This document shows positions 12,427-14,087 of a DNA stretch of 46,204 bases, in pieces. Below the pieces are notes generated by a model. It had not been told where the DNA came from and searched no databases. It saw nothing but the letters and a program-made list of their open reading frames with translations. How positions within the stretch are numbered: the stretch's first letter is position 1; every line of letters begins with the position of its first letter. Source of the DNA: Candidatus Moraniibacteriota bacterium (lineage in GTDB: Bacteria; Patescibacteriota; Minisyncoccia; Moranbacterales; UBA1568); NCBI GenBank assembly GCA_013334575.1, contig JAAXXG010000008.1, positions 1-46,204 on the forward strand, read 5' to 3'. Both the position numbers and the translations under genes were made by a program.

Positions 12427-12466
12427 GATATCATCGCGATCCACGGAATCCATGCGCTATGGATAT

Positions 12467-12745
12467 CGCTGTGGGCAGGGAGGGAGAAATCCCCTCCCGG
12501 GAGATTTCTCTCCTTCGGGCCGGAGCGCTGCGCACGCTCGCGCCCTTCTCATCCCTTCACTATTTTCAATAACGACTACCACACCCGACGTATGAAACGC
12601 TGAGCACGGTTTTCGCTGTGGGCAGGGAGGGATTCGCCCATTCGGGCCGGAGCGCTGCGCACGCTCGCGCCCTTCTCATCCCTTCACTATTTTCAATAAC
12701 GACTACCACGCCCGACGTATGAAACGCTGAGCACGGTTTTCGCTG
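12467..12745 (-). repeat. two tandem tRNA-Tyr-linked repeat units (127 and 147 bp), each ending in a copy of the tRNA 3' end
   Basis: GTGGGCAGGGAGGGA at 12471, 12618 and 12745; the intervening ~105 bp are near-identical. Confidence 0.92.
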
Positions 12746-12829
12746 TGGGCAGGGAGGGATTCGAACCCCCGAAGGCACAAGGCCGGCAGATTTACAGTCT
12801 GCTCCGTTTGACCGCTCCGGCACCTACCC
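12746..12829 (-). tRNA. tRNA-Tyr(GTA), intact copy
   Basis: GGGTAGG acceptor, GCAGA-CTGTAAA-TCTGC anticodon arm, long variable arm, GGTTCGAATCC. Confidence 0.95.
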
Positions 12830-13087
12830 GTTATCAACTTCCAAACTCTCCCTCAGTCTTTTTCGAAGATCTTTCTTTCCGTCGCTTGTTTTCAGAAAAC
12901 GTTCCCGCCGTTCCGCTTCCGACTTGTAAGTATACGCTTCGTAGCACAGAAGCATGAGTGGTCGTCTCGATTTCGTCGATTCGACATTCCCGCTCCGATG
13001 CTCATCCATCCGCCTTTTCAGGTCTCCCGTCATTCCGACATAAAACTTCCCATCGTTCCCACTCCTCAAAATGTACACGTAATACAT
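12824..13087 (-). CDS. stand-alone GIY-YIG nuclease (87 aa)
   Basis: MYYVYILRS..KFYVGMTGDLKRRMDEH..STKSRRP..YEAY..EAERRERFLK; stop codon lies in nt 4-6 of tRNA-Tyr. Confidence 0.93.
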   Translation of the reverse strand: MYYVYILRSGNDGKFYVGMTGDLKRRMDEHRSGNVESTKSRRPLMLLCYEAYTYKSEAERRERFLKTSDGKKDLRKRLRESLEVDNG

Positions 13088-13097
13088 AAGAAGAACA

Positions 13098-13213
13098 AGG
13101 GATTCGCCCCGCATGCGCGGGGCGTCCGGCGCATGCCGGACGAACCCTAAATCCGAAGGCACAAGGCCGGCAGATTTACAGTCTGCTCCGTTTGACCGCT
13201 CCGGCACCTACCC
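13098..13213 (-). pseudogene. disrupted tRNA-Tyr copy (identical 5' 61 nt, T-arm with insertions, no 3' acceptor strand)
   Basis: 13153-13214 identical to 12769-12830; then a 5-nt insert, GGGTTCG, a 36-nt insert, AATCCCT. Confidence 0.9.
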
Positions 13214-13234
13214 GAATATCTTTTCAACCACCTG

Positions 13235-13307
13235 AGCCGAAGGCCGGATTCGAACCGGCGACCGACGGTTTACAAAACCGTTGCTCTACCAGCTGAGCTA
13301 CTTCGGC
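13235..13307 (-). tRNA. tRNA-Thr(TGT)
   Basis: Anticodon arm ACGGT-TTTGTAA-ACCGT; GGTTCGAATCC. Confidence 0.95.
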
Positions 13308-13340
13308 ACTTCGGACCGACACTCCGACAGACAGTATATA

Positions 13341-14087
13341 TCATCGAGAGCGATCTTCAAACGCCTTCTCCAGTCTCCGGATCTTCACCTTCACGGCGCG
13401 ATTCGTCGGATGAAGCTTGAGCGCCTGCCGATAGCATTCCTTCGCGTCCTGAAGGTTCGATGACGCGAAGTAACAGTCGCCGAGCTCCTCGTACGCCGCC
13501 GCATCTCGCGGGTTCTCGACGATGCGGGCGATAAGCGATTCCTCCCGCGAACCGTCGGCACGGGAAACCGGGGCCGACTCGGGCCGAACGACCCGCTCGC
13601 GGAGCATCGGCCGAGACTCTGCGATTCCGTCGGTCGCGACCACCTTCCCGTTACCGCGAGCTCCCTCTTCTTCCGGAAACGCCTCCTCGAGAAACGCCTT
13701 GGAAGACGTCTCCACGCTTCCCGATTCGTTTCCAGCGGCCTTCCGGGAGAAGACCGAGGAACGTTCGCGTTTCACGGGCTGTTCTCCGAGACTCTTCCTC
13801 ATCGCATCGAGTTCCGTCCGACGTCGCCGCAACTGCTCCAGGGAAGACTGGAAGAAGTTATGAACCCGAAGCGTCGCCGTCTTGAATCTTGATGCGATCC
13901 GTTCGAGCATCTTAAGCAGGAATGCCCGACGAGAAAGGGCGCGGGAATGGGAGGTTGCCCCGGACGAACCGCTCATCGACGAGAGTTTCTCGGCGATATC
14001 GGCATCGCCCATCCTCCTCGAAAGGAACCAGAGGAGCGTTCCGAGCGCGATCACGATCACGAATGGCGGGACGATGAGATACCACAT
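13341..14087 (-). CDS. membrane-anchored TPR protein
   Basis: N-terminal TM; C-terminal TPR (AYEELGDCYF..DAKECYRQALKLHPTN). Confidence 0.85.
   Translation of the reverse strand: MWYLIVPPFVIVIALGTLLWFLSRRMGDADIAEKLSSMSGSSGATSHSRALSRRAFLLKMLERIASRFKTATLRVHNFFQSSLEQLRRRRTELDAMRKSLGEQPVKRERSSVFSRKAAGNESGSVETSSKAFLEEAFPEEEGARGNGKVVATDGIAESRPMLRERVVRPESAPVSRADGSREESLIARIVENPRDAAAYEELGDCYFASSNLQDAKECYRQALKLHPTNRAVKVKIRRLEKAFEDRSR

Follow-up and report, generated by a model that had tools for sequence, protein, structure and literature searches.

Why should a broken copy of a tRNA gene, standing immediately upstream of the gene for a very small nuclease, carry two tiny hairpins in the middle of its T-loop? 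The question is raised by a locus in contig JAAXXG010000008.1 of Candidatus Moraniibacteriota bacterium (assembly GCA_013334575.1); this whole stretch of 46,204 nucleotides (nt), the window, corresponds to contig C14 in a genome of 1.13 Mb (hereafter G000) that comprises 22 contigs and has a G+C content of 57%. On the minus strand, the genes follow one another in the order tRNA-Thr, truncated 5' copy of tRNA-Tyr, gene for a GIY-YIG nuclease of 87 amino acids (aa), and intact tRNA-Tyr. In sense orientation, the T-loop of the damaged copy reads TTCG-[16-nt hairpin]-CG-[16-nt hairpin]-CGAAT. The intact gene carries GGGATTCGAACCC where the damaged one holds the hairpins. The two hairpins are one conserved module, inherited with the nuclease open reading frame (ORF). 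As for its meaning, the reading that we favour, and to which we give roughly an even chance, is that the module TTCG-[stem-ATNC-stem]-CG-[stem-GNAT-stem]-CGAAT represents the upstream end of a free-standing, UPF0213-like GIY-YIG homing cassette that invades tRNA genes, with the hairpins spoiling the cut site of the dead copy.

A first-pass annotation of the locus had placed the inserts at positions 13098–13152 of the plus strand and had described them as two 16-nt units with perfect 6-bp stems, with loops (ATGC and GCAT) that are reverse complements of each other, lying less than 20 nt before the GIY-YIG start codon. The sequence was re-read and this description is correct to the base, 19 bases being counted between the nearer hairpin and the ATG at 13087–13085. 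What had been missed is a further insert, ATTTA in sense orientation, in the T-stem of the damaged copy, which is shared with the orthologous loci of two related genomes (G008 and G001). The homology of the truncated copy to tRNA stops after CGAATCCCT, so that the copy is devoid of the 3' acceptor strand; it was not called by ARAGORN and scored 20.6 bits with the Rfam tRNA model, against a threshold of 29. It is not a functional tRNA gene in the sense of a complete cloverleaf with both acceptor strands, and the whole arrangement is the result expected of an element inserted at the T-loop of a tRNA gene.

The hairpin pair stands well above chance. The pattern CCNGCRYRYGCNGG has three matches in the window, with 0.05 expected, and none of 100 shuffled sequences reached three. 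On the genome scale, there are six pairs of abutting GC-rich hairpins, four of them within 100 nt of a tRNA gene, compared to one to three pairs in three Markov simulations. Moreover, independent contigs from two sequencing runs span positions 12769–13127, and thus the ORF together with one complete and one incomplete hairpin, with zero or one difference, which rules out an artefact of the assembly; the two runs may represent the source sample. In contigs of other organisms from the same samples, the module shows two substitutions, 13125 T>C and 13140 A>G, which form a compensatory pair. In a search of sequencing runs, the stretch was substantially present in two DNA runs only; RNA runs contained small shares of it (0.05–0.06 of the sampled words), consistent with the conserved tRNA parts only.

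The first-pass annotation had presupposed that further copies exist and that they accompany this type of nuclease, and both expectations were borne out. Its own hairpin pattern was matched six times in 1.13 Mb, and all six hairpins either occupy the T-loop of a pseudo-tRNA or have a GIY-YIG gene no more than about 240 nt away. A truncated tRNA-Ser(CGA) on contig C4 holds, at the same T-loop position, an identical hairpin 2 and a compensated variant of hairpin 1; the other modules of G000 are carried by a truncated tRNA-Ser(GCU) (C22), a degraded tRNA-Ser-like copy (C8) and a 3' fragment that follows tRNA-Val (C6). Four of the five T-loop modules of this genome are solo modules, from which the ORF is gone. 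In relatives, 26 modules were collected from fetched loci filtered for the ability to form hairpins; the architecture of the locus recurs there at tRNA-Tyr, at four tRNA-Ser species and at two tRNA-Gln species. The closest orthologues of the nuclease (77–80% identity), in G008, G001 and G002, lie at tRNA-Tyr with the same architecture, ATTTA included, and those of G003 and G006 lie at tRNA-Ser and that of G012 at tRNA-Gln; at the same tRNA-Ser there is one hairpin in G006 and there are two in G003. A homologous ORF starts 12–25 nt downstream in at least 12 of the 21 modules checked, the remaining ones being solo, beside an intact tRNA and with the ORF lost, and the T-loop cassettes with 6-bp stems belong to a single protein clade. 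Between G000 and G008, the module differs at three of 34 positions, two of which are compensatory; the proteins are 80% identical and the spacer cannot be aligned. When 201 genomes of the order were searched with a loose pattern, 42 of them gave matches, many of these matches being chance occurrences in coding DNA; a strict pattern covering the 6-bp-stem variant was found in three of 401 genomes sampled across the phylum, and one distant family carries it with new stem sequences.

The alignment of 24 modules agrees with the earlier proposal of a single element type in two opposite orientations: the first loop is ATNC and the second is GNAT, each closed by a C-G pair, and the loops are conserved while the stems drift by compensatory substitution. 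The whole module is therefore palindromic about the central CG and looks alike on both strands; the order of the stem types is swapped between clades. In ten modules with 6-bp stems, 98.3% of the cells are paired, with changes on both sides in 15 cells; in six modules with 7-bp stems, 98.8% are paired and 21 cells have changed on both sides. The paired percentages are in part built in, the modules from the pattern search having been pre-filtered for pairing. The covariation scores were 0.350 for the former and 0.733 for the latter, compared to 0.138 and 0.207 after shuffling, and in neither class did any of 500 shuffles score as high; slid controls for the 6-bp class were at most 49% paired. 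The same picture emerges from the loci that were found via the protein and were not selected for pairing (L001, L002/L003, L005, L006, L007, and L043). The hairpins are maintained. A single long hairpin, in which hairpin 1 pairs with hairpin 2, is near-isoenergetic in G000 (−21.8 versus −20.9 kcal/mol as DNA); it was rejected as the conserved form, as it exhibits no covariation and columns 10–37, 15–32, and 19–28 almost never pair. Searching Rfam at permissive thresholds with the window region and 12 loci of G000 retrieved only tRNAs and chance-level matches, leaving both the hairpins and the noncoding T-loop inserts unmatched.

The 87-aa protein consists of a GIY-YIG domain alone; it matches Pfam PF01541 over residues 1–71 with 61.6 bits (cut-off 22.6) and an E-value of 9.2e-17. 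Residues Y5, Y16, G18, R26, H30, and E50, which we take to be catalytic, are invariant in 23 aligned relatives. Of 41 related genomes, 36 contain members of the family, and a single genome yielded as many as 13 matches. In a tree of 86 proteins, the classes of insertion site cluster, requiring 17 changes versus a shuffled mean of 40.3, with none of 200 shuffles as low; the tree is based on 87 columns with many forks open, and kin share labels, so that it speaks for clustering and not for co-evolution. Its clades comprise the T-loop cassettes with 6-bp stems (Tyr, Ser), those with 7-bp stems (Gln), the Trp anticodon-loop cassettes, most of the D-loop ones, and the rRNA ones; the nuclease lineages track the position invaded, be it T-loop, anticodon loop, D-loop or rRNA. 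A structural model of the homodimer scored 0.53 versus 0.00 for the best control, a mark that is reached by 20 of 30 proteins solved as same-chain pairs and by one of 23 solved as single chains; the runs agree on at least 92% of contacts and the predicted local distance difference test (pLDDT) of the partner is at least 85. Members of the family also lie inside 23S and 16S rRNA sequence (L017, L047, L067, and L087, from G016, G008, G029, and G006), and many ORFs of the family that do not adjoin a tRNA share a short motif resembling ACCCCGTTA just before the start codon.

The same architecture recurs at other tRNA genes. Among 94 GIY-YIG ORFs in the fetched loci, 41 end between −50 and +25 nt from the 5' end of a tRNA on the same strand; an upstream partial 5' copy of that tRNA was found by the aligner in 32 of the 41, and in 26 of these 32 the copy contains an insert of at least 10 nt, the palindrome lying at the break itself in the other six (five tRNA-Trp loci and L086). 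These inserts are GC-rich palindromes in the D-loop, the anticodon loop or the T-loop, and the homology to tRNA runs only about 9–17 nt beyond them. A GC-rich hairpin is present within 90 nt upstream of the ORF start in 39 of 93 cases, compared to 6 of 90 and 8 of 82 in two controls. The opposite polarity also occurs, with an intact tRNA followed by the ORF and then by a 3' fragment carrying the palindromes. Furthermore, the presence of the cassette is polymorphic: it is found at tRNA-Tyr in G000, G001, G002, and G008, and it is absent from G005, which belongs to the same genus, and from G032, where tRNA-Tyr directly follows tRNA-Thr. The latter two represent the empty site, and the same join is found in contigs of other organisms; presence and absence at the same locus among relatives, the mark of a free-standing homing endonuclease, is thus observed here. 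Finally, each partial copy is 100% identical to the tRNA of its own genome even where the orthologous tRNAs differ between genomes, which implies frequent and active conversion between the dead and the live copy.

The cassette splits a tRNA gene at the T-loop, the resident 5' part being left as a dead copy. It brings along the hairpins, 9 nt of T-loop remnant, a short spacer and the nuclease gene, together with a fresh 5' part from which a working tRNA is rebuilt. As to the purpose of the hairpins, the nuclease would cut in or near the palindromic T-loop box, in the manner of SegB of phage T4; the clustering of the protein clades by target position speaks indirectly for cleavage near the insertion point. 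A break in the dead copy would then fall between two 61-nt direct repeats, and the cassette would be lost by single-strand annealing; breaks in the intact copy would lie outside the repeats. Since the former would delete the cassette and the latter would not, only the site in the dead copy would need to be destroyed. This would also account for the palindromes being always in the truncated copy near its inner end, because only a break there lies between the repeats; the same repeat geometry holds for the opposite polarity. A GC-rich self-pairing insert would destroy the site in a form hard for gene conversion from the intact copy to erase. The idea that such an insert resists correction in heteroduplex DNA reportedly goes back to Nag, White and Petes in 1989, and we suggest that this resistance may be the reason why the inserts are palindromes. 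According to this scheme, the hairpins probably wreck the cut site of the broken spare copy of the tRNA gene. The first-pass annotation had proposed that the element possibly immunises the cut site, and the spirit of that proposal lives on in the favoured reading, the T-loop of the dead copy being interrupted. The intact tRNA keeps a perfect, unchanged T-loop, and all stretches of the empty allele shorter than about 66 nt are present in the filled one, so that immunity of the usual kind is precluded for this genome. The recurrence of the architecture within G000 (tRNA-Ser(CGA), tRNA-Ser(GCU), the degraded tRNA-Ser-like copy and the site after tRNA-Val) counts in favour of the cassette.

Several points weigh against the spoiling of a cut site. 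The intact T-loop means that there is no classical immunity, and the argument needs breaks there to be harmless. The position of the cut site is deduced from where the insert lies, and the 87-aa protein is without a separate DNA-binding domain with which to read a long site. The repeat geometry by itself does not explain why the inserts are palindromes, and a mere spoiler would need neither conserved loops nor a strict two-fold symmetry. Palindromes can be perfected by template-switch mutation in the absence of selection, and the pre-filtering of the modules for pairing mentioned above has to be borne in mind. Moreover, both orientations of the T-loop core are seen at the hairpin tips (CGAAT; TCGAAT for the 7-bp class), which implies that in duplex DNA the core motif has been multiplied and not removed. 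The symmetry, the loops repeating the T-loop core and the confident homodimer model fit a protein-binding site at least as well as a spoiler.

Different explanations can be depicted for the same hairpins. A binding site would mean that the module is the cis-acting DNA site of the nuclease, whose homodimer would bind the symmetric double hairpin, or a cruciform, and thereby repress its own gene downstream or be enabled to act there during mobility, a role comparable to that of hairpin ends in the IS200/IS605 or REP/RAYT systems. I-TevI represses its own expression at an operator resembling its target. We regard such a site as a tentative and on the whole unlikely explanation: the two-fold symmetry that gives both strands the same structure, the loops and closing pairs kept while the stems drift, the mismatches that consistently disfavour the long hairpin, the homodimer model (0.53 versus 0.00) and the position of the module 12–25 nt before the start codon all agree with it; solo modules, on the other hand, persist after the loss of the ORF (four of the five T-loop modules of G000), the same loops accompany two protein clades that are not sisters, and the dimer model places the invariant E50 in the interface, an odd place for a catalytic residue. 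The spoiler and the binding site are compatible with each other. A bolder version, which we consider decidedly unlikely, is that the widespread UPF0213-type GIY-YIG proteins are structure-reading homodimeric nucleases whose cognate site is the double hairpin extruded as a twin cruciform, forming a hairpin-guided mobile system for tRNA and rRNA genes in which the T-loop core on the tips would be the recognition element; among GIY-YIG proteins, it would then correspond to what IS200/IS605 and REP/RAYT are among hairpin-dependent systems. The hairpins might instead act in RNA, as a stabiliser of the 5' untranslated region, a processing signal or an attenuator parting the nuclease message from the upstream tRNA transcript. 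The promoter-like site closest to the ORF is the one ahead of tRNA-Thr, the sense RNA has a stable fold (−60.6 kcal/mol, z −2.2) and one weak terminator-like call overlaps hairpin 2; a role in RNA gives no reason for reverse-complement loops or for the likeness of the two strands, no U-tract follows the module in relatives, Rfam yielded no match, and wobble pairs exhibit no strand bias (two G-U versus three other mismatches), so that we hold it to be very improbable. A Rho-independent terminator was itself considered and rejected, the one weak call having as its stem hairpin 2 together with the T-loop remnant, with no U-tract after the module in relatives.

Two further scenarios concern the origin of the hairpins. 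The first-pass annotation had viewed each of them as a minimal non-autonomous mobile element, able to insert independently into the CG of the cut T-loop with duplication of 2 bp, so that the pair would represent two independent insertions. Some data point in this direction: the one hairpin of G006 versus the two of G003 at the same tRNA-Ser could reflect stepwise gain or loss, the order of stem types is swapped between clades, near-identical hairpins lie inside another dispersed repeat family on C16, C1, and C7, and CG stands beside every T-loop hairpin, a CG-flanked reading being possible for all nine T-loop modules examined. Those nine cases are homologous and thus do not represent independent events; furthermore, CG is self-complementary, so that each stem becomes 8 bp long and a notation as two units of 18 nt is just as valid, and the CG may be part of the module itself. 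Three further copies of hairpin 1 on C16, in a different repeat beside the fourth GIY-YIG gene of the genome, have no flanking repeat, and of 17 inserts in D- or anticodon loops 11 have none, two have one of 1 nt, one of 2 nt, two of 3 nt and one of 5 nt. In view of the C16 copies and of 11 of the 17 palindromes, a 2-bp duplication made by insertion is thus not demonstrated, and two independent insertions are not supported by a pair that is inherited together with the ORF and moves as one module with the nuclease gene. Elements resembling miniature inverted-repeat transposable elements or repetitive extragenic palindromes should show a consistent target-site duplication and many dispersed copies at unrelated sites; here CG flanks are confined to the homologous T-loop modules (9 of 9), and there are only six pattern-fitting hairpins in 1.13 Mb, all tied to cassettes. 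We therefore judge the mobile mini-element to be doubtful and clearly improbable. That the hairpins are functionless, neutral scars of error-prone break repair would fit the palindromic filler of varied sequence at breakpoints in many loops; pairing kept through 36 cells changed on both sides, loops conserved across several families and one distant family, and a module better conserved than the adjoining spacer and ORF make this extremely unlikely.

Returning to the homing cassette, the closest known system is SegB of phage T4, the product of a free-standing GIY-YIG homing endonuclease gene among tRNA genes. According to published passages on this enzyme, its 27-bp recognition site holds the T-psi-C stem-loop motif, which is conserved and 11 bp long; cleavage takes place close to the 3' part of tRNA genes and leaves 2-nt 3' ends, and SegB is present in some relatives and absent in others. 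SegB differs in lying between genes, with no partial tRNA duplication or hairpin module mentioned in these passages; it is, moreover, a phage enzyme, the amplified segB fragment given there being 687 bp, so that its product must exceed 87 aa by far. The nearest proteins to the 87-aa one in sequence are those of UPF0213. Its best matches among solved structures are UPF0213 / BH0048 and EF2693 (PDB 1zg2 and 1ywl; E-values of 2.1e-07 and 9.7e-07), which are likewise a GIY-YIG core alone, of similar size (96–107 aa), and for which the depositors record neither function nor genomic context. A survey of literature on GIY-YIG proteins with tRNA genes, homing, partial duplication, YhbQ and the Candidate Phyla Radiation (CPR) or Patescibacteria, as represented by titles and the openings of abstracts and by passages of PMC2330249 and PMC2254439, disclosed neither tRNA-splitting GIY-YIG cassettes in these bacteria nor such a hairpin module.

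Two organellar systems offer parallels. Free-standing GIY-YIG genes of fungal mitochondria supply the host gene with a new end, and the old one persists as a pseudogene; atp6 of Allomyces is said to be the classic case. The logic is the same, in that a part-copy of the host gene is carried, the host gene works and the resident part is stranded; the mitochondrial cases involve protein genes with a replaced 3' end, whereas here the replacement concerns the 5' part of a tRNA, and the stranded copy is recognisable by its hairpin module. The GC clusters of yeast mitochondria and the double-hairpin elements are small GC-rich self-pairing inserts, sometimes paired and thought to be mobile. Such palindromes have numerous copies scattered over a variety of sites, in contrast to those described here, which are few, lie at cassette junctions in tRNA loops and are inherited with the nuclease gene.

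The hairpin module would be a new component of a homing cassette, and it offers a testable role for a large family of tiny UPF0213-like GIY-YIG proteins whose structures are known and whose function is not. It also shows that tRNA genes are heavily contested in these ultrasmall bacteria. If the module is a repair-proof spoiler, it exemplifies how a selfish gene can secure its own stability in the face of gene conversion and of the nuclease that it encodes; as a binding site, it would reveal a new hairpin-dependent mobility system and a compact nuclease specific for both sequence and structure. On the practical side, the broken copies confuse assemblers, contigs breaking at the 61-nt repeat, and inflate apparent ORFs. 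An example of the latter is a 127-aa frame on the minus strand (12824–13207, GTG start) that crosses the pseudo-tRNA and the hairpins into the nuclease gene; it is probably an annotation trap, as homologues begin at the internal ATG (MYYVYIL). The features of the locus are reported in Table 1. The promoter-like site at its upstream end could drive the whole string of tRNA-Thr, pseudo-Tyr, nuclease gene and tRNA-Tyr.

Table 1. Features of the tRNA-Thr/tRNA-Tyr locus, in the order of minus-strand transcription (positions of the window).
Feature	Position	Strand	Remarks
Promoter-like site	13333..13360	-	Upstream of tRNA-Thr(UGU); TTGAAG-16-TATACT, 9/12 matches; consensus match only
tRNA-Thr(UGU), resident upstream neighbour	13234..13307	-	
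Truncated tRNA-Tyr copy, tRNA positions 1-61	13153..13213	-	61/61 bases identical to the intact gene
5-nt insert in the T-stem 5' strand, sense ATTTA	13148..13152	-	Plus strand TAAAT
T-stem 5' strand and first half of T-loop, sense GGGTTCG	13141..13147	-	Plus strand CGAACCC
Module hairpin 1, sense TCCGGC-ATGC-GCCGGA	13125..13140	-	Plus strand TCCGGCGCATGCCGGA
Central CG, two-fold symmetry centre of the module	13123..13124	.	
Module hairpin 2, sense CCCCGC-GCAT-GCGGGG	13107..13122	-	Plus strand CCCCGCATGCGCGGGG
Second half of T-loop and 4 nt of the T-stem 3' strand	13098..13106	-	Plus strand AGGGATTCG, sense CGAATCCCT
10-nt pyrimidine-rich spacer ahead of the start codon	13088..13097	-	
GIY-YIG nuclease gene, 87 aa and stop	12824..13087	-	Stop TAG overlaps positions 4-6 of the intact tRNA-Tyr
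Intact tRNA-Tyr(GUA)	12745..12829	-	

On the 3' side of the intact tRNA-Tyr (12430–12744, minus strand), a noncoding unit of about 110 nt is present in two tandem copies, each ending in a tRNA-Tyr 3' fragment (12618–12636, tRNA positions 67–85, and 12471–12485, positions 71–85); G005 has a similar insert after its tRNA-Tyr. These units look like a second, ORF-less kind of T-loop insertion, one that duplicates the 3' part. Partial duplication of tRNA genes is common in this genome, at least 15 of its 47 tRNA genes having a partial duplicate within about 350 nt. Eight intact tRNAs of G000 (Lys, two Gly, Glu, Asn, Asp, Arg, and Tyr) have a copy of their own 3' end 160–330 nt downstream, running from the T-loop onward and, in the case of Gly(UCC), reaching into the downstream flank; the loci (L031–L036 and L042) are C2:62150–62440, C4:45705–45990, C6:42200–42590, C19:10170–10450, C21:19645–19930, C22:30540–30910, and C19:1–200. 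The noncoding inserts of about 130 nt that precede these copies fall into at least two sequence families, with no match in Rfam.

A second conserved double mini-hairpin, made up of two 15-nt units (CCAGCC-NNN-GGCTGG and TCACCC-NNN-GGGTGA) without a spacer, interrupts the anticodon or D-loops of truncated tRNA-Glu and tRNA-Ser copies (G000 C19:9827–10247, C4:29350–29430, C6:2340–2410, and C8:1010–1210; loci L083, L084, and L013), and in places it adjoins a different GIY-YIG clade. At L090 (G030), which belongs to another family, the invasion of tRNA-Tyr is at the anticodon loop; a double hairpin is found in each of two nested truncated copies, and a nuclease gene of a different clade lies between these copies. 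A GC-rich hairpin pair with loops AAT and GAAT is located at C12:28488–28525 of G000, 2 nt upstream of tRNA-Pro(GGG), directly following the stop of a protein gene and with no partial tRNA copy evident there. Lastly, a dispersed repeat of G000, found at C16:19800–20600 and at about 25 other places (C1, C7, C17, and others), starts with GTCATCCCGAGC and goes on with CGAGGGATCTGC and then a CAGATTCCTCC segment; some of its copies enclose a mini-hairpin like hairpin 1, and several flank the fourth GIY-YIG gene of the genome, which adjoins no tRNA.
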